DNA from: a virus
Taxonomy: Duplodnaviria > Caudoviricetes
Length of the DNA: 64,000 bases
Direction: 5' to 3' (one strand)
Virus record (IMG/VR): IMGVR_UViG_3300033074_000304
Span: 2,540-66,539 of that record
Made by a program: the position numbers and the translations under genes. Below are positions 25,506 to 55,654 of this stretch, one piece after another. The number at the start of each line of letters is the position of its first letter. Position 1 is the first letter of the stretch. A model generated the notes under the pieces. The model had not been told where the DNA came from, made no database searches, and worked only from the letters and a program-made list of their open reading frames with translations.

Positions 25506-25520
25506 ACGTCGTGATGACGT
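25506..25520 (+). promoter_or_regulatory. Late-gene 5' hairpin ACGTC-GTGAT-GACGT adjoining the TerL SD
   Basis: Perfect 5-bp stem; an identical 15-mer precedes the capsid gene. Confidence 0.65.
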
Positions 25521-25526
25521 GGAGAT

Positions 25527-28367
25527 ATGATGACAGACGAACAGAAAGACAAGATCATTACGCTTGTAAAGCGCTGTAAGGCCGATTTCCTCTACTTTGC
25601 CAAGAACTTTCTCAAGGTTGAAGCCCGTGTAGGCGGCAAAATCATCCCCTTTGAGATGAACTCCCCCCAAAAAGTGCTGCATATCATAGTTGAGAGGCAC
25701 ATCAAGCCTCACCGGCCCGTCAGGATCGTAGCCCTTAAAGCTCGCCGGATGGGCTTTTCAACGTACTTCTCGGCCAGATTCTTCTGGAAATCTTCATTTA
25801 ACCGCAACAGGAAGGCCGCGCAGATCACCCACGAGCCGGAAGCCACGGATACCCTCTTCAAAATGGTCAAACGGATGTACGACCACCTGCCAAAATGGAT
25901 GCAACCGGAGCAAAAGTACAACAACAAGAGCCTGCTGGAGTTCAACAACAAGGATGGGACCGGTCTGAACAGTGGTTTCAGGGTCGCAACTGCCGGGAAA
26001 TCCGATTTCGGGTCAGGCCAATCCATACATTTCTTGCATCTTTCGGAAATGGCCAAGTGGCCGGTGGAAACGACCTCTTCGCTGATGACTTCAGTCGAGC
26101 AAACGGTCCCATTTGACGATCCAGAGGCTGAAGAGGTCATAGAATCCACCGCAAAGGGTATGGGAGGGGAGTTTTACAGCCGTTTTTATGGAGCCAAGTA
26201 CCGCATTTGGGTAAAAAAGCTCAAGGGCGGGAAGCCGGTCATCGACACTACCATAAACACGTCTGCACCAGACGATAACCTGTTCACTTCTGTGTTCCTG
26301 CCATGGTTTGTCTTTGAGGACTACGTCATGCCGGTGTCACCCGGCTTCAGCAAGACGCAGGAGGAGCGTGAAATAGCCGACAGATTCGGTCTTTCTGACG
26401 AGCAGGTCGTATGGAGACGCTTCGCTATAGCCAACCTGTGTAAGGGAGACATCGACAAGTTCAATCAGGAGTACCCGGATTGCATTGCTGCAGGCAGTAG
26501 GGTCGGGACATCTGCGGGTATCTTCAAAATCGAAGAGCTGGTGGATGCCAGCCACTGTCTGCTGTGCGCTGACCACGGGGTGGTGTCGAGAGTATGGCTC
26601 AAGGCCGAAAGGGAAGTGGTAAGGGTCACTACCTCCCTCGGCTACAGCCTCACATGCACACCAGATCACTGGGTAGCTGGTGCCGATGGGCATTTTGTCC
26701 AAGCCGGGGCGTCAGAAGGGTCAGAGATCGTGCTCCAACCACCAGTTTTTGCAGACTCAGAATATGTCCACAAATACCAATACCTCCCGTCGGCGGAAAT
26801 GTCGGTGCCAATAACTCCTGAGTTCGGCAGGTTTCTTGGGTATTTCGTGGGTGACGGCAGTTACTCAGGAAACACCATATCTATCGTATGCGAAGGGTCA
26901 GATGCGGATGTGATTGCTGACGTGGAGCAGCTGATAACAGCTCACTTCGGTAAGCCCGGCACCAGAGCGGTGGGCTCAAAAGGAGGCGGGGCCGAGGTCA
27001 GGTTGTCATGCGTGGCAGCGGGGGCCATGTTCAAGTCACTTGGACTGATCGAGACCAAGCCAGACCGGCTGATGCGTAAAGTATGCGTGCCAGAAGCTAT
27101 ATTCAGAAGCCCCAAGCCAGTCGTCAGGGAGTTCCTGCGGGGCCTTTTTGAGGCTGACGGGTTTGCCGGTTACCAGCAGGCCAGAATGGTGCTCTTCAGC
27201 AAACACTACGATTTCTTGCAAGATGTACAGCTACTACTGCTCGGATTTGGCATAACATCGAGGCTTACCACGTCTCAAAGGCGCAACAAAACCCATGAGT
27301 ACACGGCTAACGAACTGTGTCTGAGGGCAGCAGAATGCAGGATGTTTACTACTGAAGTGGGCTTTGTTTCAGCCCGCAAGCAGGGTAGACTGGTGGCTCA
27401 TTGCAACACAAACCCTAAATTCGCCAAGAGGAGCTACAAAGGCAAGAGCGTCACCAAAATCACCCTTTCCGACACCGTTACGAGTGTTATATCGGGAGGG
27501 GCGGCACACGTATACGATGCTACCATCCGTGGGTACAAACCTTGGTTCGGGGCCAACGGGATATTGGTTCATAATTGCCCGGAGGTGGCATTCCTCACGT
27601 CAGGACGCCCGGTGTTCGACAACGTAAAGGTATCTGCCCTCAAAGACGTGGCACCCAAGCCTATAGCCAGATACGAGTTTGAAGTGTACCCCGGTGGAGG
27701 CAGCGGCTTCGGCCCTACCCCGCAAGGCAGGTTCGCTGTCTGGGAAGAACCTGATCCCAACAAGGCGTACATTGTGGGTGCCGACGTGGCCGAGGGCCTG
27801 GAGAAAGGCGACTTTTCCTGCGCCTACGTAATCAACCATCAGACCGGGGAGATGGTGGCTGAGTGGCATGGCAAGATTGACGCGGATATGTTTGCAAGGG
27901 TTCTCTACGCCATTGGTATGCGCTACAACACTGCCTTTCTGGCCCCTGAGAGGAACAACCACGGTATGACGGTGCTGTCATGGCTGCAGAGCAACCTGAT
28001 GTACCCAAACAATAGAATATATGTGGAAATGGTACACGACCCACCAGCCAAGCCGTACAAGCGATACGGGTGGGTAACCAACCTGCGTACACGCTCCATC
28101 ATGATCGACAACCTGATCAGGGAGGCCAGAGAGGGTATCCACGGCATCAGGAGCGCCGACCTGCTGGATGAGATGCTGTCATTCAAGATTCAGAAGAATG
28201 GCAAGATGGAGGCGGACTCCGACATGCACGACGACCGGGTCATGGCGTATGCCATCGCCAAATACGTCAAACAGACCACCCCTTTACGCATAAAGACTCG
28301 CAACAAGTTATCCACAGCCCCGGCCTCTTCAAGACTCAAAGGCATAGGCTGGAAGGCATTTGTGTAG
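25527..28367 (+). CDS. terL: Terminase large subunit with intein
   Basis: LKARRMGFST (Walker A), HLSE (Walker B), IESTAKG, VGADVAEG, PERNNHG, HDDRVMA. Confidence 0.95.
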   Translation: MMTDEQKDKIITLVKRCKADFLYFAKNFLKVEARVGGKIIPFEMNSPQKVLHIIVERHIKPHRPVRIVALKARRMGFSTYFSARFFWKSSFNRNRKAAQITHEPEATDTLFKMVKRMYDHLPKWMQPEQKYNNKSLLEFNNKDGTGLNSGFRVATAGKSDFGSGQSIHFLHLSEMAKWPVETTSSLMTSVEQTVPFDDPEAEEVIESTAKGMGGEFYSRFYGAKYRIWVKKLKGGKPVIDTTINTSAPDDNLFTSVFLPWFVFEDYVMPVSPGFSKTQEEREIADRFGLSDEQVVWRRFAIANLCKGDIDKFNQEYPDCIAAGSRVGTSAGIFKIEELVDASHCLLCADHGVVSRVWLKAEREVVRVTTSLGYSLTCTPDHWVAGADGHFVQAGASEGSEIVLQPPVFADSEYVHKYQYLPSAEMSVPITPEFGRFLGYFVGDGSYSGNTISIVCEGSDADVIADVEQLITAHFGKPGTRAVGSKGGGAEVRLSCVAAGAMFKSLGLIETKPDRLMRKVCVPEAIFRSPKPVVREFLRGLFEADGFAGYQQARMVLFSKHYDFLQDVQLLLLGFGITSRLTTSQRRNKTHEYTANELCLRAAECRMFTTEVGFVSARKQGRLVAHCNTNPKFAKRSYKGKSVTKITLSDTVTSVISGGAAHVYDATIRGYKPWFGANGILVHNCPEVAFLTSGRPVFDNVKVSALKDVAPKPIARYEFEVYPGGGSGFGPTPQGRFAVWEEPDPNKAYIVGADVAEGLEKGDFSCAYVINHQTGEMVAEWHGKIDADMFARVLYAIGMRYNTAFLAPERNNHGMTVLSWLQSNLMYPNNRIYVEMVHDPPAKPYKRYGWVTNLRTRSIMIDNLIREAREGIHGIRSADLLDEMLSFKIQKNGKMEADSDMHDDRVMAYAIAKYVKQTTPLRIKTRNKLSTAPASSRLKGIGWKAFV
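26481..27575 (+). mobile_element. Intein with LAGLIDADG homing endonuclease (365 aa) in TerL
   Basis: Starts CIAAGSRV, block B TCTPDH, LGYFVGDGS and LRGLFEADG, ends ILVHN followed by Cys+1. Confidence 0.95.
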
Positions 28368-28394
28368 ATTATCAACACAGTTGTGTGTTTTTTG

Positions 28395-28424
28395 TTGACA
28401 CGTTGGTTGCCAAAATTCTATGAT
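28395..28424 (+). promoter_or_regulatory. Sigma70-type promoter upstream of portal with flanking operator-like dyads
   Basis: TTGACA-18 bp-TATGAT; CAACACAGTTG at 28373-28383 and CACGTTGGTTG at 28399-28409. Confidence 0.65.
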
Positions 28425-28455
28425 CGCTCCAACTTACTATGAACAGGTTGGTGAT

Positions 28456-30597
28456 ATGCAACTTGACGCCCCGCTTAATAAAGGAGTGACAGCCCTCGGT
28501 TTGGTGCCGTTCAAGCCTGCGTCGGTAATGGTTGCTGAGGAGCAGGCGGCTCAGCAGGCCGAGCTTGAGCGTGCGGCCCAACAGCGTGCGTCACTGACCA
28601 GTTCCCTTTCCAATTATATCGACAACTGCTGGTCGGATGCCAAAGAGGCCAAGATACCAGTCGAGGCCCAGATGCTGCGCAACATGCGCCAGCGGAGCGG
28701 TGAGTACGAGGCCGACAAGCGGCTGGCTATCACCCAGATGGGCGGCTCTGACGTGTACGTGTTGCTCACAGCGACCAAATGCAGAGCAGCTATCGCGTGG
28801 CTCAATGACTTGCTGAGGCCGGTTGGCGAGCGTCCTTGGGGCATCAAACCCACCCCTATTGCTTCAATACCCGGAGACCTGTTTGCAAGCCTTGAGGCTG
28901 AGTCCATGGCGGTTGCCGAGCAGGCCGTCTCAGAAGTCATGCAGATTGCCGGGTATGTCGACCCTGACATCCTGACTGGTGAAATCCAAGAGTACATGCA
29001 GAAGCGCCACGACGACCTGATGAAGGAAGTCCAAGAGGAAGCAGAAAAGGGCGCAGACCGCATGTCATTACTGATGGATGACCAGCTGCAGGAAGGTGGC
29101 TGGCACCGTGCGTTCTGGCAGGTAGTTGACGATCTTGTCACCAGCAAGGCAGGCATCCTGAAGGGCCCCGTCATCCGGCAGCGCAAAACACAGCAGTGGA
29201 CACAAGACGCCACCGGCAAGTGGATTATTGACGTTAAGCCAGCCTTTGTACCAGAGTTTTACCGCGTCTCACCGTTTGACCTCTACCCCTCCCCAGACTC
29301 CCGTGGTCCCAACGATGGTTACCTCATAGAGCGCCATCGTCTTACCCGTACTGAAATACAAGCCATGCTGGGCGTGCCCGGTTACTCAGACGACAGCATC
29401 CGCAAGGTCTTGTCCGAGTACGGCAGCGGTATGATCAACCTGTTGAGCGTAGACTCTGAGCGTGCTCCGATTGAGTTCGGCGGCAACCTGAACCCAGTGA
29501 AGCAAAAGGGTGAGAAGATCGAAGCTCTTGAGTTCTGGGGCTCTGTGCAGGGCAAGCTGCTGATTGACTGGGGTCTGAAAGACAACATTGACCCGGTGTT
29601 GGACTACGAAATCAACGCTTGGAAGATCGGAAACTACGTCATCAAGGCGGTCATTAACCCTGACAAGCTGGGGCGCAAGCCGTACAGCGTAGATTCATGG
29701 GAGCGGATACCGGGCTCGTTCTGGGGCCGTGGCGTTCCTGAGTTGATGGCTGACATCCAAGATGTTTGTAACAGCCTTGCAAGAGGCATTGTCAACAACG
29801 CCCAGATCGCGTCCGGACCTCAGACCGAAGTAAACACCGACCGTTGCGACGCCAGCGAAGACATCCATCCGTGGAAGATTTGGCAGGTTACCAATAGTCA
29901 GATGCAAGATGCTCCGGCTGTGCGGTTTACCACGCCACCCTGTATCGTTGAGCCGTTGTTGAGGGTGTTCGATCACTTTTCCACCCAGGCTGAAGATCAG
30001 ACCGGTATCCCGCGCTGGGCCTATGGCCGCTCAAGCTCTGCCGACGCAAGCTCTACCTCGTCCGGCCTGTCCATGCTGATGACATCTGCCAGCCGTGGAA
30101 TTAAAGAAGTGGTGTCTCATATCGACCAGATGACCGCTGACTGCATCGAGCGGTTGTACGACTACAATATGAACTTTAGCGAAGACGAGAGCGTCAAGCG
30201 TGATTGCCGTGTGATTGCCCGTGGCTCTTCGTCGATCCTGCAGCGCGAGCAGCGTCAGCAGCAGCTCACTCAGTTGCTGGCACAGACCAACAACCCGACC
30301 GACATGCAGATCATCGGGCTGGACGGCAGAGCCAAGCTTCTTTCGGAGTCCATCAAGGCTATGGATATTGACTCCTACGATGTTGTCCCAGAGAAGGACG
30401 AACTGAAGGAGTTGATCGCCAAGATTGAGGCCCAGAACGCACAGATGATGGCTATGGGCCAGAACCCCGGCCAAGGCAAAGGCGTGGCGTCTCAGGCAGC
30501 CCCGGACCCACTTGACCCAGCTGGACAAAAGATGGGCGGCGAGCAGGCCAATATGTTCAAGAGCATTCCTGAGCCTGAGATGCAGGAAGCTGCATGA
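28456..30597 (+). CDS. Portal protein
   Basis: Follows TerL; GILKGP, VSPFDLYPSP, GSFWGRGVPELMADIQ...N..ARGIVNN..IASGPQ, TGIPR; start reassigned to ATG 28456. Confidence 0.9.
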   Translation: MQLDAPLNKGVTALGLVPFKPASVMVAEEQAAQQAELERAAQQRASLTSSLSNYIDNCWSDAKEAKIPVEAQMLRNMRQRSGEYEADKRLAITQMGGSDVYVLLTATKCRAAIAWLNDLLRPVGERPWGIKPTPIASIPGDLFASLEAESMAVAEQAVSEVMQIAGYVDPDILTGEIQEYMQKRHDDLMKEVQEEAEKGADRMSLLMDDQLQEGGWHRAFWQVVDDLVTSKAGILKGPVIRQRKTQQWTQDATGKWIIDVKPAFVPEFYRVSPFDLYPSPDSRGPNDGYLIERHRLTRTEIQAMLGVPGYSDDSIRKVLSEYGSGMINLLSVDSERAPIEFGGNLNPVKQKGEKIEALEFWGSVQGKLLIDWGLKDNIDPVLDYEINAWKIGNYVIKAVINPDKLGRKPYSVDSWERIPGSFWGRGVPELMADIQDVCNSLARGIVNNAQIASGPQTEVNTDRCDASEDIHPWKIWQVTNSQMQDAPAVRFTTPPCIVEPLLRVFDHFSTQAEDQTGIPRWAYGRSSSADASSTSSGLSMLMTSASRGIKEVVSHIDQMTADCIERLYDYNMNFSEDESVKRDCRVIARGSSSILQREQRQQQLTQLLAQTNNPTDMQIIGLDGRAKLLSESIKAMDIDSYDVVPEKDELKELIAKIEAQNAQMMAMGQNPGQGKGVASQAAPDPLDPAGQKMGGEQANMFKSIPEPEMQEAA

Positions 30598-30854
30598 TTA
30601 CAGAGCTGAATGAGATGGAAACCGTTGGGCTGATTAAACAGCTCAGGGTTATGCAGGGCTCGCTCTTTGAAAAGCATCTGAAGTGCTTACAGAAAAAAAC
30701 TGATGAAGAATTGCGGCATATCACCGGTGACGGTGTTCTGAGGCATCAGGGGCGAGCACAGCTCCTAGAAGAGCTTCTGGAGAACATATCGTCAGCAAGG
30801 ACCGAGCTTGAGAAGCTTGAGAAGCCCAAGGTGGATATGAACAAAGCGTTTTAA
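30594..30854 (+). CDS. Hypothetical protein (Bbp19-like position after portal)
   Basis: RHQGRAQLLEELL motif; coupled to portal. Confidence 0.55.
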   Translation: MITELNEMETVGLIKQLRVMQGSLFEKHLKCLQKKTDEELRHITGDGVLRHQGRAQLLEELLENISSARTELEKLEKPKVDMNKAF

Positions 30855-30901
30855 CCCTAGCGAGCGCAGGGTATTCAAAGCCTAGCCGCAGAGCAGGCAC
30901 A

Positions 30902-30915
30902 CTGTCGTGAGACAG
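30902..30915 (+). promoter_or_regulatory. Late-gene 5' hairpin CTGTC-GTGA-GACAG before the scaffold SD
   Basis: Perfect 5-bp stem with GTGA (GNRA) loop. Confidence 0.6.
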
Positions 30916-30931
30916 AGAGAAAGGATGTACC

Positions 30932-31861
30932 ATGCCACACGCAATGTCCCCTATTGAACGAGCCGAACAGGAATTGAAAGCCATTGAGAGCCAGTTCACT
31001 GTCGCGCCCCAACAACCGGACCAGCAGGCACCACAGCAACAGCCGGAGTTCCAAGCACAACAGCAGCCGCAGCAAAGCCAGCCACCGGCTGAGCAGAAGA
31101 CTGATGACTACTATCAGCGCTGGAAAAGTCTGGATGGAATGCTAAAAAATAAGGACGAGCAGATTTCACAGCTCATGCAGAGCAACACCGAACTGATGCA
31201 AAAGTTTGAAACCTTGCTGCAAAAGCCAGCGGAGCCACAACAACCTGAATTGAAACTGGACGACTTCTCCAGCCAATACGGGGAGGACACCGTAGAAGCC
31301 ATCGCAAAGGTGGCAGCGTCCATGTTTGGTAGCAGGCTGACAGCCTTGGAGGAGCGGGTCAATGAGCTCGCCGGAGTCGCAGGTGCTGTCCATACGTTGG
31401 CAGCTGACCAGCGCACGGTTAAACAAGAGAATTTCAGGGCCGGGCTCAAGGCACAGGTATCAGACTTTGAGCAGATCATCGAGACACAGGAGTGGGATAC
31501 GTGGCTCCTGAACACCACCGATGAGATCAGCGGGTTGTCTTACAAGCAGCTGTTTGATGCAGCCAATGACGGCTGGAATATGGGCACCATGGTCGCTTTG
31601 TTCAACAGGTTCAAGGCAACCAAACCAGCGGCCCCCAGTCATCAGCACGATCCACGGGCAGGCCTTGTGGCACCCGGTGGAGGTAGTTCAGCGTCCGCAC
31701 CCACTTCGGGTGTAGACCCTAATGGGACGTGGACAGAATCAGAGATTATGCAGGCATACGAGAACCACCGTCGTGGCATGTATACGGCAGACCACTGGGC
31801 AAAGATTGATTCTGAAATCATGAAGGCTTATGCGGAAAACAGGGTGATCGTAGGACGATAA
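30932..31861 (+). CDS. Capsid scaffolding protein (putative)
   Basis: Q/P-rich N-terminus, YYQRWKSLDGM coiled coil, located between portal and capsid. Confidence 0.75.
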   Translation: MPHAMSPIERAEQELKAIESQFTVAPQQPDQQAPQQQPEFQAQQQPQQSQPPAEQKTDDYYQRWKSLDGMLKNKDEQISQLMQSNTELMQKFETLLQKPAEPQQPELKLDDFSSQYGEDTVEAIAKVAASMFGSRLTALEERVNELAGVAGAVHTLAADQRTVKQENFRAGLKAQVSDFEQIIETQEWDTWLLNTTDEISGLSYKQLFDAANDGWNMGTMVALFNRFKATKPAAPSHQHDPRAGLVAPGGGSSASAPTSGVDPNGTWTESEIMQAYENHRRGMYTADHWAKIDSEIMKAYAENRVIVGR

Positions 31862-31864
31862 GGA

Positions 31865-31913
31865 CTGTCGAGAGATAGACCGTTTAACTTACCCAAGAAC
31901 GTCGTGATGACGT
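31865..31913 (+). promoter_or_regulatory. Two late-gene hairpins before the capsid SD
   Basis: CTGTC-GAGA-GATAG (31865-31878) and ACGTC-GTGAT-GACGT (31899-31913). Confidence 0.65.
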
Positions 31914-31930
31914 AGAGAGGATTTAGCACC

Positions 31931-32977
31931 ATGGCAACTATTACTATTGCAGGCTCCAGCCAGCTTGGCCGCGCCGCTGGTTATCCCGATTTTAGCTCGG
32001 TTTCAGCGAGCTCAATGACCCCTTTGATTTATGCTCAGAAGACTTTAATTAAATTTTATCGCAAAACCTTCCTGAGCGAGATTTGCAACACCGAATATGA
32101 AGGCAGCATCAAGAGTCAAGGCGACAAGGTCATCATCCGTACCGTTCCGGATATCACCATCAACAACTACGAGATCGGGCAAGACCTGACCTATGAAACC
32201 CCCACCTCTGCCAGCATCATGCTGGAGATCGACAAGGCCAAGTATTATGCCTTCAAGATCGACAAGGTGGACGAACTGCAGAACGACATCAACCAGTTTG
32301 AGAAGTGGACTGCTGATGCCGCTGAGCAGCTGAAGATCAAGATTGAGACTGATTTTCTGGCTGACGTATTCAAGACCAACGTGGCCACCAACGTGTCCAG
32401 CTACAACCGTGGTGCCGCTTCTACCGGTGTAGCCGGTATGTCTGGCAACTACCTGTTGGGCGGCTCTAACGCCACCAAGGGTATGGCCATCGTAAACCGT
32501 GGTGCTGCCACCACTGCCCTGTCTGCTGTTGACCCTATCGACGCCATCATGGCCGCCGAATCGGTGCTCACCGAGCAGAACGTGCCGCAGGATAGCCAGC
32601 GCTGGATGGTCATCCCTACTTGGTTTGCCTACACCCTGCAAACTTCCGAGCTGCGCCGGGCAGACGGTCAGGGTTCACCGGCCAACCAAGATGTACTTGA
32701 GAACGGCAAGCTGGGCCGTCTGGGGCAGTTCACCCTGTACGTGTCCAACAACCTGCCGAATCATGCCACCTCCACCTCTGCAGCAACTTCCGCTGGGGCC
32801 TGTACCATCATCCCCTTCGGCCACAAGGTGGGTATGACCTTCGCAACTCAGCTGACCGATACCGAGATGATGCCTCACCCGCTGAACTTTGGACGGATTA
32901 TGCGCGGTCTGCAGGTCTATGGCTACAAGGCTGTCAAGCCCGAAGCTCTGGGCGTAATGCTCGCCGCACGGGCGTAG
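31931..32977 (+). CDS. Major capsid protein (HK97-fold)
   Basis: ICNTEYEGSIKSQGDKVIIRTVP, LEIDKAKY.AF.IDKVDELQ, RWMVIP, G.LG...F.LYVSNNLP, GLQVYGYK. Confidence 0.92.
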   Translation: MATITIAGSSQLGRAAGYPDFSSVSASSMTPLIYAQKTLIKFYRKTFLSEICNTEYEGSIKSQGDKVIIRTVPDITINNYEIGQDLTYETPTSASIMLEIDKAKYYAFKIDKVDELQNDINQFEKWTADAAEQLKIKIETDFLADVFKTNVATNVSSYNRGAASTGVAGMSGNYLLGGSNATKGMAIVNRGAATTALSAVDPIDAIMAAESVLTEQNVPQDSQRWMVIPTWFAYTLQTSELRRADGQGSPANQDVLENGKLGRLGQFTLYVSNNLPNHATSTSAATSAGACTIIPFGHKVGMTFATQLTDTEMMPHPLNFGRIMRGLQVYGYKAVKPEALGVMLAARA

Positions 32978-32985
32978 TAGATGAA

Positions 32986-33007
32986 AGAGGGGGCTCCGGC
33001 CCCCTCT
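32986..33007 (+). terminator. Stem-loop after the capsid gene (terminator or stabiliser)
   Basis: AGAGGGGGC-TCCG-GCCCCCTCT, weak U-tract. Confidence 0.6.
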
Positions 33008-33023
33008 AGTTTAAGGAGGCGTC

Positions 33024-33320
33024 ATGCCTAAGTATATTATGAGAATCAGCGACGGCGTTCTGTTCCCGTATGCAACCCATGCCCACTGGGAAACTGACCC
33101 CAAGTACAAGGTACATGTGGAAGGGGAAGTAGAGCAGGCCGCTGTTGCAGAAGCAGACGAAGCGGCAGAACGGCACAAAGCTATTCTGGCCGCAGTACAT
33201 GCAGTCCCGGTTGAAAGCTACGGCAAGAACGGGCGTCCTAACGTAGGCACCGTGTCTGAGCTGGCCGGGTTCAAGGTAACCGCTGAAGAGATACAAGCCG
33301 CTCTGGATCAAACCAAATAG
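33024..33320 (+). CDS. Hypothetical head-associated protein
   Basis: SD AAGGAGG; position after the capsid gene. Confidence 0.6.
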   Translation: MPKYIMRISDGVLFPYATHAHWETDPKYKVHVEGEVEQAAVAEADEAAERHKAILAAVHAVPVESYGKNGRPNVGTVSELAGFKVTAEEIQAALDQTK

Positions 33321-33335
33321 CCGAGGAGATAGCCA

Positions 33336-33752
33336 ATGGCAACTACTTATACTGATGTAGCTAACCAAGATGCGTTGGTCCGTACTTTTTGTTCGGCCAC
33401 CCCTTTTGTCGTAAAGAGCACCTTCACCCTGTCTTCGCTTGACAGCGTCCTGGTTAATGACGACGTGGTGAATCTGTTCACCCTTCCTGCCAATACGATG
33501 GTGACTGACGCCGTTCTGGAAGTAACCGGGGCAGGGACTTCTGCCACCACCGGCACTCAGACCGTCAAGCTGCGTGTGGGCACCACTGATATTACAGCAG
33601 CGCTTAATGGCAAGGCAACCGGCATTACCCACAGCACTGCCAAGTATGTCGGAGCTACAGACGCGACTGTAAACGTAATCGCTGCAGTGGCTACCGATGT
33701 CGTAACGCTGAACCCAACCATCCGCGTAACCCTGATTTGTGTCAACATCTAA
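33336..33752 (+). CDS. Putative capsid decoration/cement protein
   Basis: Beta-rich, DVVNLFTLPANTMV pattern. Confidence 0.6.
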   Translation: MATTYTDVANQDALVRTFCSATPFVVKSTFTLSSLDSVLVNDDVVNLFTLPANTMVTDAVLEVTGAGTSATTGTQTVKLRVGTTDITAALNGKATGITHSTAKYVGATDATVNVIAAVATDVVTLNPTIRVTLICVNI

Positions 33753-33794
33753 CCCGGTGGGGCCTTGTGCCCCGCCTTTCTTTCTGGAGTAGCC

Positions 33795-34439
33795 ATGACC
33801 GCTCAGGACATGATCACCGCGCTGAGATATCGACTCGACGACACCGTCGGGGCTGATGCCAACAAGATGTGGACCGACGGCGAGCTGTTGTCGTACATCG
33901 ACGAGGTGCAGACCGAAGTGGCCGAAGAGTGCCGTGTCCTGCATGTCACGTCTACGGTTGCGTGCGAGATCGGGGACTCTACCTTCGACGCTGGGGGGAT
34001 GACCCTTGAGGTGGAAGAGGCCGTGCTGATCGCGGGTACGCAGCGTGTCCCACTCGGCCAGTCTTCCATGCATGAGTTTGTAGCAGCAGGCGTGTGGCCG
34101 TCTCCTGAAGTCGGCACGCCTACGTCCATGGCTCCGTCTGACTCCAGCGGCGGATATGTTCTGGACAAGGAGCTGGACTTCGCGGCGTCTCTGTACCTGA
34201 TCACCACCTCTCTGCCAGACCCGATTATTGACGACACATCCGCCATAGGCATCCCGGCCAAGTACCACAGCAGGATGCTGAACGGCGTGCTCAAGCTCTG
34301 TTTCCTCAAGCCCGACAAGGAGACCTTCAGCCAGACCAAGGCTGACCTGTTCACCAAAATGTATGAGATGGACAAAGAGCATATCAAGCGCATTGAGAGC
34401 AAGGTTCGTCCGAAAGCCATCAAATACGTTGTTGGGTAG
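33795..34439 (+). CDS. Head-tail adaptor-like protein
   Basis: MTAQDMI..LRYRLDD...WTD.EL..YI.E; GIPAKYH. Confidence 0.65.
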   Translation: MTAQDMITALRYRLDDTVGADANKMWTDGELLSYIDEVQTEVAEECRVLHVTSTVACEIGDSTFDAGGMTLEVEEAVLIAGTQRVPLGQSSMHEFVAAGVWPSPEVGTPTSMAPSDSSGGYVLDKELDFAASLYLITTSLPDPIIDDTSAIGIPAKYHSRMLNGVLKLCFLKPDKETFSQTKADLFTKMYEMDKEHIKRIESKVRPKAIKYVVG

Positions 34440-34448
34440 GAGCTGACC

Positions 34449-43636: not shown

Positions 43637-43693
43637 TTCGCATGACAACCAAGAAGCTGGTAATGTGCTAACAACAAGTTGGAGGTAAGATAT

Positions 43694-50900: not shown

Positions 50901-53900
50901 TTAAAGCCGCCCAAATCCGCCTAGATGATGAAAGCAAGGCTGCATCTAACCAGCTTTTTGGCTACGAAGTCATGCCTGTCTACGTCAAAACCAAGAACCC
51001 GTTCATGTTCTGGCGTAAGGACCACATGGACGCGCTGATAGCAGGAGTACCGGCTATGCTCGACACCTACCGCAGGGACAAGATCGCCAAGGGGGCTTGG
51101 GAGCCGTTTGACCATCCTGATGTGCAGGACTGGCTACGCGATAATGGGTATGACGCCTACTTTGAGACCGAGTTTGGCCAACTTCTTTATGAAGATAAGG
51201 ATACAGGCGATACCAAGACGGGTGGGCAGCTCAACCTCGCGCTGATAGGCCAATCAGAAGACCAGCAAATCAAATCCGCTACCGGCAACGTAGGCTCATA
51301 CGGCCAACGCCCGGTTACGGCTGAAGACGTGGCCAACCTCAAGATTACCGAAGCCGACCAGAAGGCCCTGGGCACCAACGTCGTCAAGGTAGGCGACCCC
51401 ATGACCCCGGAGATCGCCAATAAGCTGCAGGCGCTGGGGGACATCCGCTTCAGCGTAGCCACCCCGGCTGACACCATGTCCTTCACCAAGGCTGCCGACA
51501 GTGAGCGCCTGGGCTCCAACCCCGGTGGCATCTATCAGGACGCTGCTGGCAACAGGTTCTACGTTAAGTTCTACGACGATGACAATCAGGCCAAGTCAGA
51601 GATAGCTGCCGCGAAGCTGTACAGAGCAGCTGGGCTTCCTTCCCCTGACCTTACCCTCGGTCCTCTGCAAAACGGTCTCAACGGGCTTGCATCGCGCTGG
51701 AGAGATGATCTTCAGGAGTTGGAGCCTGCCGAGCTTGCTGCCCACCCTGATGCCCCGGCTGCATACTATGTATCTGCTGTTCTGAAGAACTGGGACGTGG
51801 TGGGTCTTGGGTATGACAACCTTGTCCAGACCGGCTACGGCAGACTGATGGTTGTTGACGGTGGCGGCACGTTCAAGTTCAGAGCCCAAGGTGGCCCCAA
51901 GGCATACGATGGCAATGTGCAGGCAGAACTGGACGGTTACCTTAACCCTTACCTGAATCCTGAAGCGGCCAGAGTGTTCTCCAAGATGTTTGAAGCGAAC
52001 CCGAAGGCCAAGGAGCAAGGGCAGGCCGCTGTAGCCAAGTTGACTGACAACGTGATTGACAAGGCTGTTGCTGAGGCTGGACTGGGGCAGGATATTGCTG
52101 AGGCGGCAAAGCAGCGCCGGGATGCGGTGATGAAGTTCTCGGTGGGGTCGCCTGAGTTCAAGACTTGGTTCGGCAATAGCAAGGTGGTTGACGGTCAGGG
52201 CAAGCCGCTGGTGGTGTATACAGGCACGAGCAAGGATGCTGATTTTACCAAGTTCAAAGCACCTAAAAATGGAGTATGGTTTACCTCTGACCGGGAGGTC
52301 GCGTCGCAATACGCAATGGAGAATGACAGCCAAGCCACCAAGATGGATTATTACACTGGCAAGTTTATCCACACCAACACCAGAGGTCGCGTAATACCAG
52401 TCTATTTGTCACTCCAGAACCCTAAAGCACTAGATACGGTTCCCGACTCCTTACGGTACGCATCTAACTATAAAAAAGCGCAAGGGGAGTATTTTGAACA
52501 ACTGAAAACTCAGGGCTACGATGGAGTAGTGATGCCGGGCGGCGTGTATGTGGCATTTAGGCCAGAGCAAATTAAGTCGTCAATGGGCAACCGTGGCACA
52601 TGGGATGGTAGCAACCCTGATATACGGTTCTCTATCAACGACACCCTGATTGCAACCGGCCTGACCCAAGGCCAATTCAACGCCCTCCATAATGTGGGGG
52701 CTCTGACTATCGACAAGACTTGGCAAGACAAGGCGGAGTCTCTGCAGAAGTCCATGTTCGGCAACTTCAGGCAGAAGTATGTTGACCAGTTTGACCCGCT
52801 GAAAGGGCTTGATGATCCTGCTGCCTACATGTACGCCAGACTGTCCAAGGCTTCTGACGGTGCTCTTGAGGCGTTCCTGAACTACGGCGACATCCGCATC
52901 AACGGTGGGGTGTATGACAGTATCGTGGGCGGCAAGGGTCTGACTGAGCTGATGCAGGGGCTGCAGGGTGAGCACGACCGCTGGATGTGGTGGGTGGCTG
53001 CCCAGCGTGCCGACAAGCTCTCCAAGGACGAAAGGGAGCGGCTGTTCGGTACTGCTGATATCCGTGAGCTGAAGTTGTTGAACCAAGGCGACCTGCCCGA
53101 CGGCCAGAAGCGCCTGAAGGTATACTCGGATACGTTGAAGGAGTTCCAGAAACTCAACGCCAAGGTGTTGAACGTAGGCCGCGATTCCGGGCTGATAGAC
53201 GCAAACTCCAAGCAGTTCTGGGAAGACGAGTTCTACATCCCCTTCTATCGTGCAGCTGAGGACGGTATAGAGGGTTCAGATGTGGGCCCAAGCACTTCCA
53301 GCGGCCTTGTCCGCCAGTACGCATTCAAGAAGCTGAGAGGCGGCACAGGCAAGTTGAACCAAGACTTGATGGCCAATATCCTGATGAACTGGTCACACAT
53401 CCTGTCAGCTTCTGCCAAGAACCGGGCAGCAAAGCAGGCCCTTGAATCAGCAGAGCGTATGGGTATCGCGGCCAAAGCCAAGCATGGCGAGAAGGGCGCT
53501 GTCTGGTTTATGGACGGTGGTAAGAAGACCAGCTACACCATTGACGAAGAGTACGCCCCGGTACTGGACGCTATCACCGCCATATCCAGAGCAGGGAGCG
53601 ACGGTCCGGGCGCGAAAGCCATGGGCAAGTTTAAGCACTGGCTGACCGTAGGTGTTACTGCCAACCCTACCTTCAAACTGCGCAACCTGATCAGGGACTC
53701 TATCGCTGCGATGGCTGTATCACCTCTTGGCTACAACCCGCTCAAGAACGTGAGCGACGGACTTGATATCATGAGGGACAAGCAGAACCAGACCTATGCT
53801 TCGCTGCTGGCTTCTGGCGGCATCATCCGGTTTGGCACCATGCTGGAAGGCGACCGTGCCTCCCACATGAGAAAGTTGATCAATGCAGGCATCCCGGAGA

Positions 53901-55132
53901 ATACCATTGTCACCAGCTGGGAACACGTTAAAGACAAGTTCACCAAGGGTCTTGACTGGTACAACGAGTGGGGCGACACCACTGAGGGTGCCAACCGCGC
54001 TGCCCTGTACCAGCAGCTGAGGGAACAGGGCGTATCACACGCCGAGGCCGCCTTCCAAGCACGGGATATGCTGGACTTCTCTATGGGTGGCACCAGTGGG
54101 GTTATCAGATACCTGACCTCAGTTGTACCGTTTATGAACGCCCGGATTCAGGGTCTGGACAAGCTGGCTCGCGGGGCACGAGAGGATAGCGGCAGATTCG
54201 CAGCTGTGCTTGGAGCAACCGCTCTGGCGTCCCTCTTCCTGTTGATGAAGTACCGTGACGATGACGACTGGAAGAAGCGCGAGGACTGGGACCGTGACAA
54301 CTACTGGTGGTTCAAGGTAGACGGTAGGGCCTATCGTATCCCCAAGCCGTTTGAAGTGGGTGCCATAGCCACGTTGGCAGAACGCACTGCGGAACTGTAT
54401 ATGAGCGATGAGATGACTGGTAAGCAGTTCGCCAGGTTCCTTAAAGATACTGTCCTGAACACGTTTGCAATGAACCCGGTGCCACAGATGTTTAAACCGG
54501 TAATAGACGTATATGCAAACGAGAACAGCTTCACCAAGCGTGCTATTGAGTCTGAGGGGATGGAGCATCTGCAGAAGTCAGAGCGTTACACCGGCACCAC
54601 CAGTGAGGCAGCCAGACTGTTGGGCAAAAACGGGCTCGTGTCCCCGGTGCAGATTGACCACCTTGTCAAGTCCTATGCCGGGTGGCTTGGTACTGCCGCC
54701 CTGACCATAGGCGATCTGACTGCCAAGGGTATTATGGACCGCCCAGCTGAAGCCGACCGCAGGCTGAAAGAGATGTTCTTCGTGGGCAACTTCGCAGAAG
54801 AGCTGCCCAGCGCATCCAGCCGGTATCTGACACAGTTCTACAAGCAGTCCCGTGAGATCACCGAAGCTCATGCTACCTTCAAGCTGTTGAACGAGACTGA
54901 CCCTGAGCGTGCTGAGCGGTACGCTGAAGAGAAGCAGAACGAGTTGGGGCTTTACAAAGCAGCCAACAGAATACAGCGGCAACTGGCCAAACTGAACGCC
55001 CAGACAAGAGCGATAGAAAACTCCCGCGACATGACCGGGGCAGAGAAGCGTGAAGCCATAGACGCCATAACTGAAGCCAAGAATCAGCTGGCAGCCAGTG
55101 CTGAACGGAGCCTTGCTTCTGTTTTAGATTGA
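44957..55132 (+). CDS. Giant polyvalent internal virion protein (zincin + 3 ART-like + kinase-like + LPD38)
   Basis: Gly/Ala-rich N-terminus; RHELKH zincin (47912); LYHGT (48503), MFHG (50672) and VYTGT (52217) ART-PolyVal-like modules with PVY and QIKS.GN.G motifs; YVKFY...NWDVVG...VDGGG kinase-like module; RIPKPFEVG LPD38 signature. Confidence 0.85.
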   Translation: MALKPFSGELDKEPVLKPFDGRLDGESPKRTILGTAADVGVSALKGSVGLVQSGVGLADTATGGHIGKAIEDYTPVQLKKTQAELDTWYSDAQKAANQKVSDAKGFGGKLSALVDNPSVAFHGALESAPSMLGAAGIGRGAAAIAPKILGGAANAWKAAAVGEGAYSAGSLAEGMREQSKDGLLTPGQQGAAVLGGLGTAAIGGASGKLQKKLGWDDVEASLVNKAAIGASKKGMPTRMAQGAASEGAFEEMPQSMWEKGAENLGAGRPYTEGMAEAGAEGLAVGGLMGAGGGTVQHRMAKNDVDMDTYRKEVEAEYQRNITDPVRKKELEAEMVARGWMQQPGSTQSDQDLLQIGFTPTGQPITDPRKPWAGGSTFDTGADDGQAGNAIDGRAVSGDVIAPLSMSEIDVLNGPPVIEGEIVPDRPALPAPLKALPAPADLAGKALGDNFAMADGPLTTGDTKMGPAAQSAGLEFRNGNELLATDKTGSLDVPSVASSEQIQQAAYDRVMTTMTKTLSGQMLTEQEQAQLKHDLNVMGSLQKLNKLAPKPVDAGVQAPAGEITPAGYKPASDKGVPTSEYTAQANKPFKNAPKQAPVAGAGVEGMLTNLKEGDSSWQKADSQQANQTLSQSNQQAKEPQQSPVASPSAAKTKAPAKKAAKSKSAGVPATQAASSNQSLTEETKPLQPAADEYAGKTDAELEKLADVKESFGLKDEADAIRARIGSTKAASAPSGATMPETPLQPAKPTLISEGIKKQKAKKAAAPAAVETPTHEVMTEGGDKVSVQAKDKATAKKMVQLAEAMDAIPQLKKDIQKAKDKNRDADYIADLESYLADARKTVQKLKGQGVEAPTNWGKGEARYEAEMSNIDDTTVNTTKWSAPDAATNESESETDKKEPPTFEEYARGVAIETVMKRQAIRSMATNAAPGVNIWRNVAEMNKERGTDVKVGGEGFYSSDDGSIHFFTDDIKGKDLATAASRAAYVARHELKHRGFVAIFGDKMNPMLDAVYNQHKDRVDAYVNGLNPFRVEAKLAPLDLTAEAGQREGTEEWLASHTDPAYAGASALTKAMVGSNSIRRLTSAARNWLRMAGLNLKWSDQDILSMAKQAFKAGRDTKAKVGGIDKTTKKSHSTNVNRFSLNAQTNKPGGYAGISANTRDALEKSVATYMPQVEAMLDSGKLDLYHGTGNDTPNVSADGYFDARQFSGTNEGGAALGAGTYLATTPETGMFYAAAYTNGVETYFLNTRVNPRAQGKSVLRFDVPLNKQTKRVQDAIRAAGFAVDDTTGTVFYNQTAPKAGGEWALNDILSKHGIIGTAAPAGWAGGHLSSNEAVVRAADNGELNYAIFNDREHIEIRSRTVMKADAKGQWKPVDSTLYRTGNMSTEAAPGLDSGYGYADAYQQSPLKVRDEFDDRTLAAKRKFILNAMDVLGLKDRGLLRGYGLWKGQTNKADQDLIRHELEIDEKGKPVFKAEYEQQLRTLLALAGMVTHQDGEGYHVPVYESTGEFDNAIEFDFGGQLTRDEFQKFGAELTKIFGDAAPIAVPTDNGIRVVDWSEGDFKTFKLAISDAVEAAGLKTKATGAMDFYSPSGLMHHSGFQEGVGYGTSYREQIAVLGKTGSAAKTSGTRRSDLQRAGEAFYHEAYQIRREFAERHWGLSRNATQQEREALIGQDPAAFAQELADTLGGQTDAAYIADRANGVGLKVMEDPVKGLTNIKNMVYRDDVGRVAEAIEQVQQGNFEAVDKIKHLIAKTKLGTDMKAYEALRKPDGTVYDLNPPRRFSVGTEVQDDRTGQGRNTNIQPPAEGLDGESGAEGANQQGQSQAAGAGTGAVNIGDTGLRRDVAQDRVRLSVADQGFTEWTEGLPLRVELPELFTRGVGIGRNEWRETDPDILGERYKDFGPGVYLMFHGPKWQHKFNKFATKANDGDGRDSRGNRSVFVSPNAEWAGSYRFMQFDGAEEVAAQLKYYADKVAQVRESGGSEAEIKAAQIRLDDESKAASNQLFGYEVMPVYVKTKNPFMFWRKDHMDALIAGVPAMLDTYRRDKIAKGAWEPFDHPDVQDWLRDNGYDAYFETEFGQLLYEDKDTGDTKTGGQLNLALIGQSEDQQIKSATGNVGSYGQRPVTAEDVANLKITEADQKALGTNVVKVGDPMTPEIANKLQALGDIRFSVATPADTMSFTKAADSERLGSNPGGIYQDAAGNRFYVKFYDDDNQAKSEIAAAKLYRAAGLPSPDLTLGPLQNGLNGLASRWRDDLQELEPAELAAHPDAPAAYYVSAVLKNWDVVGLGYDNLVQTGYGRLMVVDGGGTFKFRAQGGPKAYDGNVQAELDGYLNPYLNPEAARVFSKMFEANPKAKEQGQAAVAKLTDNVIDKAVAEAGLGQDIAEAAKQRRDAVMKFSVGSPEFKTWFGNSKVVDGQGKPLVVYTGTSKDADFTKFKAPKNGVWFTSDREVASQYAMENDSQATKMDYYTGKFIHTNTRGRVIPVYLSLQNPKALDTVPDSLRYASNYKKAQGEYFEQLKTQGYDGVVMPGGVYVAFRPEQIKSSMGNRGTWDGSNPDIRFSINDTLIATGLTQGQFNALHNVGALTIDKTWQDKAESLQKSMFGNFRQKYVDQFDPLKGLDDPAAYMYARLSKASDGALEAFLNYGDIRINGGVYDSIVGGKGLTELMQGLQGEHDRWMWWVAAQRADKLSKDERERLFGTADIRELKLLNQGDLPDGQKRLKVYSDTLKEFQKLNAKVLNVGRDSGLIDANSKQFWEDEFYIPFYRAAEDGIEGSDVGPSTSSGLVRQYAFKKLRGGTGKLNQDLMANILMNWSHILSASAKNRAAKQALESAERMGIAAKAKHGEKGAVWFMDGGKKTSYTIDEEYAPVLDAITAISRAGSDGPGAKAMGKFKHWLTVGVTANPTFKLRNLIRDSIAAMAVSPLGYNPLKNVSDGLDIMRDKQNQTYASLLASGGIIRFGTMLEGDRASHMRKLINAGIPENTIVTSWEHVKDKFTKGLDWYNEWGDTTEGANRAALYQQLREQGVSHAEAAFQARDMLDFSMGGTSGVIRYLTSVVPFMNARIQGLDKLARGAREDSGRFAAVLGATALASLFLLMKYRDDDDWKKREDWDRDNYWWFKVDGRAYRIPKPFEVGAIATLAERTAELYMSDEMTGKQFARFLKDTVLNTFAMNPVPQMFKPVIDVYANENSFTKRAIESEGMEHLQKSERYTGTTSEAARLLGKNGLVSPVQIDHLVKSYAGWLGTAALTIGDLTAKGIMDRPAEADRRLKEMFFVGNFAEELPSASSRYLTQFYKQSREITEAHATFKLLNETDPERAERYAEEKQNELGLYKAANRIQRQLAKLNAQTRAIENSRDMTGAEKREAIDAITEAKNQLAASAERSLASVLD
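48318..48346 (+). promoter_or_regulatory. Candidate internal promoter within the giant gene
   Basis: TTGACA-17 bp-CATAGT with CAACTAAGAAG in the spacer; locally AT-rich; resembles the lysis promoter at 55129. Confidence 0.45.
49758..49955 (+). CDS. Nested overprinted ORF 1 (65 aa) in an alternative frame of the giant gene
   Basis: SD AAGGAG 6 nt before ATG; WEKPGVPPRRPGPDDPIFNEPVRLS. Confidence 0.5.
   Translation: MEQATENRLPFWEKPGVPPRRPGPDDPIFNEPVRLSTMRRTRSDESSQNDTGASAETPPNKSEKP
50313..50504 (+). CDS. Nested overprinted ORF 2 (63 aa) in an alternative frame of the giant gene
   Basis: SD GGAGGT 5 nt before ATG; globular helical-looking sequence while the giant frame here is low-complexity linker bounded by RFSV and RLSV. 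Confidence 0.6.
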   Translation: MTELDKDEIRIYSHLLKDLMESPGQRGPTNRVKAKLQELGLEPSILETLGYEEMLRRIESGSL

Positions 55133-55157
55133 AAAACAACCCAGAAGGCTGTACATT
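55129..55157 (+). promoter_or_regulatory. Candidate lysis-cassette promoter
   Basis: TTGAAA-17 bp-TACATT with CAACCCAGAAG in the spacer. Confidence 0.5.
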
Positions 55158-55186
55158 ACTGACAACTTGTTTTGAGGTGACACGTC

Positions 55187-55654
55187 GTGAAGACGCAAGA
55201 CCAACTATTCAAAGAGATGACCCCCGACCTGCAAGTCCTCTATGAGAAGTTTTATATGGAGATGCATCTTGCTGGTCTGGACTTTGAACTCAACGAAGTC
55301 CTCCGCACTCCCGCCGTCCAAGCAGCCTATTATGCGCAGGGCAGAGAAGACCTTGAAGAGGTTAATCGCCTTCGCAAGAACGCTGGTCTTCGCCCTATCA
55401 GCCCCAAAGAAAACAACTACCGTGTAACATGGACGCTCAACTCCCGGCACTTCCCCGATCAGCATGGGCGCTCCAGAGCATTCGATATTAGGCTGCTGAA
55501 GTACGGCAAGCCCCATTGGGAAACCAAGTGGGATGGCAACGATAACAGCATTGGTGATTATGCTGAAGCCGCTGCTATTGGCAAGAAGGTTGGCCTGGAT
55601 GCCGGTGGTATGTGGTCAAAGCCCGATTTCCCCCATTACCAGTTGGGTGAATAA
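55187..55654 (+). CDS. Endolysin, M15-family peptidase (L-Ala-D-Glu/D,D-peptidase-like)
   Basis: LRT...Q..YYAQGR, VTWTLNSRH, AFDI, GGMW..PDFPH. Confidence 0.9.
   Translation: MKTQDQLFKEMTPDLQVLYEKFYMEMHLAGLDFELNEVLRTPAVQAAYYAQGREDLEEVNRLRKNAGLRPISPKENNYRVTWTLNSRHFPDQHGRSRAFDIRLLKYGKPHWETKWDGNDNSIGDYAEAAAIGKKVGLDAGGMWSKPDFPHYQLGE

Follow-up and report, generated by a model that had tools for sequence, protein, structure and literature searches.

The late genes of this phage raise the question of why one small hairpin recurs at their ribosome binding sites and what might read it. We addressed this in a window of 64,000 nucleotides, the whole stretch of DNA that was analysed (positions 2,540 to 66,539 of IMG/VR record IMGVR_UViG_3300033074_000304). 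The phage is temperate and has a lambdoid-style layout, with an integrase, RecE/RecT and RusA, and its late operon is 38 kb long. No close relatives were detected among GenBank phages by megablast. The nearest isolates are Rhizobium phages with a capsid identity of 38% and a leader of 27 nt, and five closer capsid homologues show identities of 62–99%. A first motif scan of genome contigs gave no match, and a scan of metagenomes returned the related record G001 only. Wastewater runs labelled RNA-Seq consist of contigs that were flagged as probably DNA and therefore carry no information on transcript ends or expression.

An earlier sequence-only reading had listed five hairpins in front of, or at the start of, late genes. 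All five were found at the positions it gave, and its gene labels hold: TerL (with an intein), a scaffold-position protein, the major head protein and an M15 endolysin (Table 1). The second of these is a putative scaffold, since its role was assigned by gene order. As the N-terminus MT[DQ]EQKD is conserved in relatives, TerL probably starts at ATG 25530 and not at 25527. The intein segment is lacking in G001 and in a relative of approximately 93% identity.

Table 1. Hairpins and associated genes in the window (SD, Shine–Dalgarno sequence).
Feature	Coordinates	Strand	Details
Terminator-like structure	25457..25495	+	GGGGCC...UUCAAGGCCCC and U-rich run; directly 5′ of terL hairpin
terL hairpin	25506..25520	+	ACGUC-GUGAU-GACGU; SD GGAG adjoins 3′ end; ATG 25530 9 nt on
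TerL	25527..28367	+	LAGLIDADG intein (~26483-27574)
Scaffold-position-gene hairpin	30902..30915	+	CUGUC-GUGA-GACAG; then AGAGAGAAAGGA, ATG 30932
Scaffold-position protein	30932..31861	+	309 aa; sole match phrog_13678 (function unknown)
Capsid-leader hairpin 1	31862..31881 (core 31865-31878)	+	GG-A-CUGUC-GAGA-GAUAG-A-CC
Capsid-leader hairpin 2	31899..31913	+	ACGUC-GUGAU-GACGU; then AGAGAGGA, ATG 31931
Major capsid protein	31931..32977	+	phrog_267 at 7e-49; Pfam Phage_capsid_4
Strong hairpin	~32986-33007		ends capsid gene
Endolysin-start hairpin	55183..55195	+	CGUC-GUGAA-GACG; GUG start (55187) in loop; SD GAGGUG 55175-55180
Endolysin	55187..55654	+	Peptidase_M15_4

Within the window, either 9–17 nt separate the 3′ end of the hairpin from the start codon or the start codon lies within the loop. 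The first capsid-leader hairpin, which starts 3 nt past the scaffold stop codon, contains a G.U pair and, below an A.A mismatch, a short outer helix. The endolysin hairpin has no fifth pair because the 3′ C opens a CAA codon, where a T would give TAA. Four related records retain the hairpin sites, with the exception of the scaffold site, which is missing from the corresponding place in G001 and L001 and therefore represents a lineage-specific gain. At terL the 15-mer is unchanged and in the same place in G001 though its flanks have diverged, and L233 carries GUGUC-GUGAU-GACAC, which amounts to two compensatory pairs. The first capsid-leader hairpin is conserved in G001 and L001 as CUGUC-GUGA-GAUAG. 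The second is unchanged in G001 and reads GCGUC-GAGAU-GACGC in L001, and the endolysin-start hairpin is kept in G001 with the loop GUGAU. Judged by sequence, the terminator-like structure 5′ of the terL hairpin also appears in G000, G001 and L233, with a variable interior.

The motif GTCGWGA(N)GAY occurred five times in the window, on the + strand only and at the named sites only, compared with 0.70 matches expected from shuffled sequences; five matches were reached in 0 of 100 shuffles. No further copy was found on either strand of the 66.5-kb genome. A covariance model of 12 sites gave each of its own sites at least 18.6 bits, while the best remaining hit in approximately 179 kb had 14.7 bits (E 0.47). 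Pairing was observed in 96% of cells, with the outer pair as AU (4), CG (3) or GC (2), the second as CG (7) or UA (4) and the third as GC (9) or GU (2), a pattern of pairing and covariation matched by 0 of 500 shuffles. The compensatory change in the outer stem that the sequence-only reading had described is real and is extended by relatives. Other phages add the stems CCGUC/GACGG, UCGUC/GACGA and AUGUC/GACAU. The loops GUGA, GAGA, GCGA and GGGA, with or without one extra base, vary only within the GNRA rule and have a length of 4 or 5. Covariation, the G.U pair and the GNRA-type loops confirm, as far as sequence comparison reaches, that the sites are RNA stem-loops selected as sense-strand hairpins and not DNA palindromes. 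The conserved module consists of a short outer helix, a 1x1 mismatch (usually A.A) and NNGUC-GNRA(N)-GAYNN; the apex of the first capsid-leader hairpin on variable outer helices was seen in many IMG/VR leaders. Leader folding energies are ordinary (z −0.9 to −1.6), and the hairpins with their flanks have energies of −4.7 to −8.4 kcal/mol. A basal helix sequestering the SD was rejected, as pairing between the 5′ flank and the SD was no stronger than with permuted flanks.

Outside this genome, 44 of 120 IMG/VR matches to the 15-mer ACGTCGTGATGACGT sit 3–27 nt 5′ of an SD and start codon, representing 31 distinct genes, and the variant GCGUCGUGAUGACGC was in such a context in 18 of 121 matches; the collections were queried with exact words from this window, which biases estimates of the breadth and variability of the family. 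Controls of the same composition were nearly absent from ribosome binding site contexts in IMG/VR (stem swap 1/118, loop shuffle 0/14). The genes 3′ of the motif mostly encode major capsid proteins of at least six PHROG families, and furthermore portals, TerL, scaffold and major tail proteins. The genomes of other carrier phages contain 1–5 sites each, almost without exception on the strand of the late genes. Overall, the hairpins lie 0–27 nt 5′ of, or overlap, the SD and start codon of virion or lysis genes; in some other phages the SD is within the hairpin (GUC-GUGAG-GAC, then AUG). Measured over 76 distinct sites, the gap to the stop codon upstream on the same strand has a median of 32 nt; it does not exceed 35 nt in 39 of 74, which puts most sites inside operons. 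Among 54 matches in bacterial genomes, about a dozen are true leader sites and the remainder lie in coding DNA of high-GC bacteria. Prophage-like copies were present in Treponema, Marinomonas (including Marinomonas spartinae), Methylococcaceae and Thiotrichaceae, hence in two bacterial phyla. For cultured phages, a short blastn query gave chance matches in coding DNA only. In Rfam 15, the whole window had no match at gathering score, and the capsid leader at E ≤ 10 gave two meaningless ones. A literature search found no published description of such a hairpin family. An apparently uncatalogued family of hairpins thus stands in front of late genes of many unrelated phages.

Several known elements resemble these hairpins in part. 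Intercistronic C(UUCG)G hairpins have reportedly been described in phage T4 mRNAs by Tuerk et al. in 1988. Their defining feature is an unusually stable UUCG loop, whereas neither the stem nor the position relative to the SD is fixed; like the hairpins described here, they are small, carry a tetraloop and recur between the cistrons of late mRNAs. Cluster K mycobacteriophages carry SAS (GGGATAGGAGCCC), an asymmetric 13-bp sequence with the SD inside it that is found in the non-structural arm of one phage cluster and whose function, although unknown, has been suggested to lie in translation initiation, while ESAS adds an inverted repeat just upstream (PMC3203893). Like our hairpins, SAS and ESAS are short repeats in one orientation at the starts of a subset of genes, are conserved in related phages and number from a handful to approximately 19 copies per genome (PMC3203893). 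In contrast, the hairpins described here are GNRA-capped, lie 5′ of the SD of structural and lysis genes and occur in unrelated phages of several host phyla; the 13-bp GGGATAGGAGCCC was not found at start sites, and since sequence and anatomy differ, membership in SAS/ESAS was rejected. The hairpins are not intrinsic terminators, being followed by a purine-rich SD and no U-run, and a terminator scan did not report any of the five. Nor are they of the Guanidine-II (mini-ykkC) type, in which two tandem mini-hairpins with ACGR loops stand immediately 5′ of the SD: the loops here are GNRA(N), and a further perfect GNRA hairpin occurs in the 60 nt upstream at only 6 of the 76 sites. The 3391-aa protein was considered as an N4-like virion RNA polymerase with hairpin promoters, but Pfam assigns it LPD38 and ART-PolyVal, and the location of the sites at late genes on the sense strand also speaks against hairpin promoters. 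Pairing of the loop with the 3′ tail of 16S rRNA would require another order in the mRNA, and position 2 of the loop varies. A hammerhead core, a box C/K-turn, a CsrA site, a CRISPR-repeat mimic and a fourU-type thermometer were dropped on sequence alone.

The sequence-only reading had further proposed a post-transcriptional regulon coordinated by a single RNA-binding protein. The regulon is borne out to the extent that selected sense-strand hairpins stand at the ribosome binding sites of a small co-marked set of late genes and that such sets recur elsewhere; the single phage-encoded reader is not. In MS2, PP7, T4 RegA and Mu Com-mom, recognition of a small hairpin at or over the SD or start codon controls the translation of phage genes, and our hairpins likewise adjoin or overlap these signals. 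One could accordingly picture an operator for a phage-encoded protein, each lineage having its own fast-evolving binder. Hairpins that are bound by a protein classically combine an invariant apex with a covarying lower stem, as is the case here, the sites are placed as in coat-protein and RegA-type operators, and 1–5 sites per genome resemble a regulon. Each operator of the coat-protein and RegA type, however, is confined to one phage group and is recognised by a known protein of the phage itself. In the present case, neither Pfam nor PHROGs revealed an RNA-binding domain in the annotated ORFs, with small ORFs partly scanned; one weak zinc-finger-like match (ORF 24710-25006, E 1e-3) was under the Pfam cut-off. 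A blastp comparison at E 1e-4 detected no protein family common to seven carrier genomes (G000, G001, G006–G010), a search that distant, very small or fast-evolving phage proteins would escape. The same 15-nt sequence in unrelated phages across two phyla ill fits lineage-specific binders and points to a host-wide partner or to an intrinsic function of the RNA. As the genes most often marked encode the most abundant virion proteins, namely capsid, major tail and scaffold, a leader that sets expression is no worse an explanation than a repressor operator, and we judge an operator for a phage protein rather unlikely.

Similar weight falls on a role in mRNA processing and stability, in which a host endonuclease would cut the A/U-rich strand 5′ of the hairpin, the resulting 5′ end would be capped by this hairpin and the 3′ end of the preceding segment by the hairpin upstream, and the marked mRNA would live longer. 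The sites are intercistronic within operons and have A/U-rich 5′ flanks, the capsid gene is flanked by a hairpin after the scaffold stop codon, a second before its SD and a strong one at its end, and the link between marking and abundance would be expected. To protect an end, however, a hairpin has to be stable but need not keep a particular sequence, whereas here the apex GUC-GNRA(N)-GAY does not vary and the stem swap of the same composition hardly occurs at ribosome binding sites (1/118). The commonest form, in which a 5-bp stem with a U-A and sometimes a G.U pair carries a pentaloop, is not maximally stable, and at the endolysin site the start codon would sit in the protected hairpin. Stability as the primary function is in our view possible, if doubtful. 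Processive antitermination of the nut or put type, with the nascent hairpin modifying RNA polymerase for read-through of terminators within the late operon, would suit a temperate phage of lambdoid layout in which the terL hairpin is preceded by a terminator-like structure and the capsid gene is followed by a strong hairpin. The boxB element of lambdoid nut sites is a 15-nt RNA hairpin with a 5-bp stem and a pentaloop able to take up a GNRA fold plus an extra base, bound by N, and our hairpins share the 5-bp stem and the GNRA-like pentaloop, besides tetraloop forms. Nut sites, though, belong to early operons, are accompanied by boxA and act on transcription, whereas these hairpins are at ribosome binding sites of late genes. 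No convincing boxA (CGCUCUUUA-like) precedes them, the spacers ACCGUUUAACUUACC, AGCGUUUCUAUAACC and AGCGCUUUUAUUACAAC being merely loosely U-rich, and none is found before the scaffold and lysis sites; Pfam and PHROGs recognised no N-type arginine-rich antiterminator in the ORFs scanned, which included part of the small ones. Moreover, the terL hairpin is 3′, not 5′, of the neighbouring terminator-like structure, and the model gives no role to the close association with SD and start codon, the latter even lying within the loop at the endolysin gene; this leaves antitermination quite improbable. Least probable of all is a DNA-level site, either a palindromic operator to which a protein dimer would bind or a segment of a late promoter. 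The inverted repeats exist in DNA too, and the A/T-rich 5′ flanks (ACTA, TACTATA) could be -10-like, but the sites are on the coding strand throughout, a G.T pair would read C.A on the opposite strand and the spacing of the half-sites alternates between 4 and 5. The regions 5′ of the window sites have no promoter-like element in common, and half of all sites lie within 35 nt of an upstream stop codon.

With the RNA-level hairpin, its placement, its spread and the absence of a detectable common phage protein as the observations, our preferred reading, to which we assign a probability of roughly 0.4, is that of a cis-acting leader hairpin at the ribosome binding site that is read by a conserved host component and sets the translation of the marked cistrons. 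The hairpins would be located in intercistronic leaders of a late polycistronic mRNA, and the partner would most likely be the 30S subunit or a protein associated with the ribosome. The hairpins would tune the translation efficiency of each marked cistron within one long operon, with a probable second role in the lifetime of the marked mRNA segment. The effect on translation initiation, the host origin of the partner and the sign of the effect are what we infer here. Portal, TerL and endolysin are not abundant proteins; boosting the abundant ones alone therefore fails to cover every site.

A more specific form of this reading is suggested by 16S rRNA. The invariant core of the family is, letter for letter, helix 36 (h36) of most bacteria (GUC-GUGA-GAU), including the G.U pair of CUGUC...GAUAG, and the h36 string was confirmed in 16S sequences printed in 28 papers. 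Enterobacteria such as E. coli have GUU-GUGA-AAU at this helix. G001 and L001 carry the h36 stem and tetraloop, GUCGUGAGAU, in their capsid-leader hairpins; the copy in the capsid leader of the window is GUCGAGAGAU, with the GNRA variant GAGA as its loop. In the ribosome, h36 is docked on the central pseudoknot and is part of the uS2 site (PMC6007441; PMC10931766). As a 3-bp hairpin in rRNA it differs from the phage element, which extends the stem by two covarying pairs and adds a mismatch and an outer helix. Just 10 nt are identical, and the agreement may be due to chance, with a probability of a chance match of approximately 0.5% for approximately 5 kb of stable RNA, judged post hoc. That the hairpin mimics h36 and engages uS2 (with bS1) or the docking groove of h36 is in our opinion improbable; if true, phages of many bacterial phyla would carry a copy of a universally conserved rRNA element (GUC-GUGA-GAU/C) beside the SD of virion genes, and their late mRNAs would gain privileged or regulated access to the 30S subunit without a phage-encoded factor. 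The possible identity with h36 leads to a specific, testable mechanism.

Translational tuning by small leader hairpins is in itself a familiar concept. New is the reuse of one 15-nt sequence by unrelated phages, before capsid, tail, portal and terminase genes and in at least two bacterial phyla, with no common phage protein detected. If the hairpin acts via the host ribosome or a universal factor, it would constitute a portable signal for late-gene expression, a marker for major structural genes in metagenomic phage contigs and a handle on how protein amounts are balanced within one long operon.

The motif GTCGWGA(N)GAY occurs five times in the window, against 0.70 expected, and every copy lies on the + strand; a search of the genome found none beyond these five. 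All five hairpins are present where the sequence-only reading had placed them. At three sites the 3′ end of the hairpin is 0–1 nt from a purine-rich Shine–Dalgarno (SD) sequence and 9–17 nt from the start codon. The first capsid-leader hairpin starts 3 nt past the scaffold stop codon, 20 nt 5′ of the capsid-proximal one. At the endolysin gene the GUG start codon is in the loop and a GAGGUG SD lies 4 nt earlier; here a fifth base pair is ruled out because the pairing T would make a TAA codon.

The window represents bases 2540–66539 of one 66.5-kb phage record with a temperate-type layout (integrase, RecE/RecT, primase-helicase and RusA-like resolvase genes), a Tad2-like anti-Thoeris gene and a long late block. 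The terL intein is missing both from G001, a complete syntenic relative, and from a relative of about 93% identity found in wastewater runs; the latter has inserts of 1168 nt elsewhere in terL, 374 nt at the end of the portal gene and 1074 nt inside the capsid gene. These differences indicate that the head genes gain and lose mobile elements. A near-consensus sigma-70-type promoter overlaps the annotated portal start; the actual portal start may lie farther 3′, or the gene may be translated with only a very short leader. The palindrome CAAC-N3-GTTG is present in five copies (1.3 expected), all in promoter-like intergenic regions, and a related GTCAAC-ATA-GTTGAC lies directly 5′ of the capsid SD in a distant relative (L132). 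A non-coding stretch of 469 nt has a very strong fold (−198.9 kcal/mol) that includes a tRNA-shaped domain, comprising acceptor, D and T arms, in which a long GNRA-capped helix replaces the anticodon loop. Neither ARAGORN nor Rfam reported this stretch, which may be a phage ncRNA, either Y-RNA-like (YrlA) or of another kind. A second hairpin family, in two tandem copies 5′ of the scaffold gene, has a covarying 4-bp stem, a bulged A, a GC/GC pair and a CNNNGA loop (for example GCCU-A-GC-CGCAGA-GC-AGGC). It is kept in the window's own genome (G000), G001 and the relative fragment L001 (2210–2265), and also lies at L128, 6620–6690.

Positions of late-gene hairpins and other features in the window
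Feature	Position	Strand	Remarks
Hairpin before terL	25506	+	15-mer type
Hairpin before scaffold gene	30902	+	
First capsid-leader hairpin	31865	+	tetraloop type
Capsid-proximal hairpin	31899	+	15-mer type
Hairpin over endolysin start	55183	+	
TerL with LAGLIDADG intein		+	late block; intein at 26483–27574
Portal, SU10-type		+	late block; annotated start ATG 28420
Scaffold-position protein		+	late block
Capsid protein, P22/Phage_capsid_4-type		+	late block
Polyvalent protein, 3391 aa (LPD38, ART-PolyVal)		+	late block
M15 endolysin		+	late block
Insert observation, terL	26008/26049		
Insert observation, portal	30585/30594		
Insert observation, capsid	32043/32066		
Sigma-70-type promoter	28395–28424		TTGACA, 18 nt, TATGAT; 11/12 matches
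CAAC-N3-GTTG palindromes	1882, 21292, 21877, 28373, 63349		
Folded non-coding stretch	24241–24709		
Tandem hairpins 5′ of scaffold gene	30855–30900		

Conservation was followed in G001 (66.8 kb, approximately 70% nucleotide identity) and in two fragments of relatives, L001 and L233. The terL, lysis and both capsid sites are kept amid otherwise scrambled intergenic DNA, and the scaffold site was gained in the lineage of the window. Across 12 sites, neither the two top pairs nor loop positions G1, R3 and A4 ever change, and the third pair is G-C or G·U. The lower two pairs show the changes AU/CG/GC and CG/UA, which confirms the compensatory change proposed earlier for the outer stem; this covariation was not built in, because these pairs lie outside the search pattern. 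Pairing was retained in 96% of cells, a value reached by none of 500 shuffles, and a covariance model scored the 12 sites at at least 18.6 bits and everything else at no more than 14.7 bits. More distant relatives (capsid 50–72% identical) have another hairpin, or none, at the corresponding place.

Scanning IMG/VR with the exact 15-mer placed 44 of 120 matches in RBS context, defined as 3–27 nt 5′ of an SD plus start of an ORF of at least 50 aa, and these represented 31 distinct N-termini. Controls of the same composition behaved as chance: 1/118 with the second and third pairs swapped (ACTGCGTGATGCAGT) and 0/14 with a shuffled loop (ACGTCTGTAGGACGT). The lower-stem variant GCGTCGTGATGACGC gave 18/121, before 16 distinct genes. 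Second copies at the same loci added further stems (CCGUC/GACGG, UCGUC/GACGA, AUGUC/GACAU) and loops (GCGA, GGGA, GCGAU). The tetraloop type of the capsid leader, A-CUGUC-GWGA-GAUAG-A, lies in IMG/VR nearly always in non-coding DNA and forms the apex, past an A·A mismatch, of a variable outer helix of 2–8 bp. In approximately 95-kb contigs from a single sample (L142, L147, L148, L152, L154 and others), one or two copies of A-CUGUC-GUGA-GAUAG-A sit on long A/U-rich outer helices, 52–53 nt apart, with a strong terminator and without an ORF downstream; this element could be a small RNA made of the hairpin module.

Half of the 20 ORFs downstream of 15-mer sites encode major head proteins, from six PHROG families (10, 334, 1357, 283, 1328 and 617-related); one head protease/head-protein fusion, two portals, one TerL, three phrog_290 tail proteins and one baseplate wedge protein were also found. 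The tetraloop type precedes five major tail proteins, two capsid proteins and one scaffold protein. Five other carrier genomes have 1–5 sites each, and every site passing the stem test is on the late-gene strand before portal, scaffold-like, capsid or TerL-like genes; in some, the SD is within the hairpin (GUC-GUGAG-GAC, then AUG). For 76 distinct sites, the upstream stop codon lies a median of 32 nt away, which places the element inside polycistronic mRNAs. The GTDB matches that are genuine leader sites lie in prophage-like DNA from Treponema (two in T. primitia ZAS-10), Marinomonas spartinae, Methylococcaceae and Thiotrichaceae, and the others fall in coding DNA of high-GC bacteria.

Also frequent downstream of the 15-mer is a 77-aa ORF family with a signal-peptide-like N-terminus. 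Its leader (L009, L023, L034, L038 and about 15 more loci) has two hairpins, AGCC-GUGA-GGCU and, after a 5-nt spacer, ACGUCGUGAUGACGU, then UAGGAG; the first has C-G where the U-A pair stood. At HK97-type capsid genes (L029, L052, L072, L082, L093) the 15-mer hairpin is set within a larger leader, in which an upstream hairpin loop, CUUGGGCAA, is able to pair with GCCCAA between SD and AUG. This pairing, with the compensatory change GUGGGC/GCCCAC in L082, resembles a pseudoknot that covers the ribosome-binding site.

Inverted repeats might also be the binding site of a dimeric DNA-binding protein. The strictly sense-strand orientation, the G·U pair (C·A on the opposite strand), the switching of loop length between 4 and 5 and the restriction of loop changes to GNRA-fold tolerance are unlike such a site and fit RNA stem-loops; no promoter-like element common to the regions upstream of the five window sites was found. 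The observation behind the sequence-only reading is confirmed, and its interpretation is partly supported. The phage-specific regulator that it proposed is disfavoured, since no RNA-binding domain was found among the window's annotated ORFs, the seven carrier genomes compared have no protein family in common by blastp at E 1e-4 and one sequence recurs across phyla. These points favour a conserved host partner, or else an intrinsic property of the RNA. With the hairpin located at the ribosome-binding site or inside it, the most economical candidate for what reads it is the 30S subunit or a factor associated with the ribosome. In most bacteria, helix 36 of 16S rRNA is identical to the invariant core GUC-GUGA-GAU, and the string appears as printed 16S sequence in 28 papers. 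Helix 36 docks onto the central pseudoknot and contributes to the uS2 site (PMC6007441); uS2 contacts h35–h37, is required for bS1 to bind and also acts as a translational repressor (PMC10931766). We regard this match as a lead rather than a finding, as 10 identical nucleotides can arise by chance.

Possible rival roles for the hairpin are those of a repressor-type operator, a cap for processing or stability, and a signal for antitermination. The hairpin resembles boxB in form and coat-protein and RegA operators in position, but a defining feature of each system is missing. Leader folding energies are ordinary, and a proposed basal helix sequestering the SD failed a permutation test. Among published concepts, the SAS/ESAS repeats of Cluster K mycobacteriophages come nearest; they too are start-associated, in one orientation and of unknown function, but differ in sequence, anatomy, gene set and breadth. 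No match was found in Rfam 15, nor to the core sequence as a leader hairpin in the literature searched. The most fitting description is that the element belongs to a widespread and apparently uncatalogued family of hairpins in phage late-gene leaders. Its mechanism is probably host-dependent; that capsid, major tail and scaffold genes are enriched among those it marks suggests that it would set high or balanced output.
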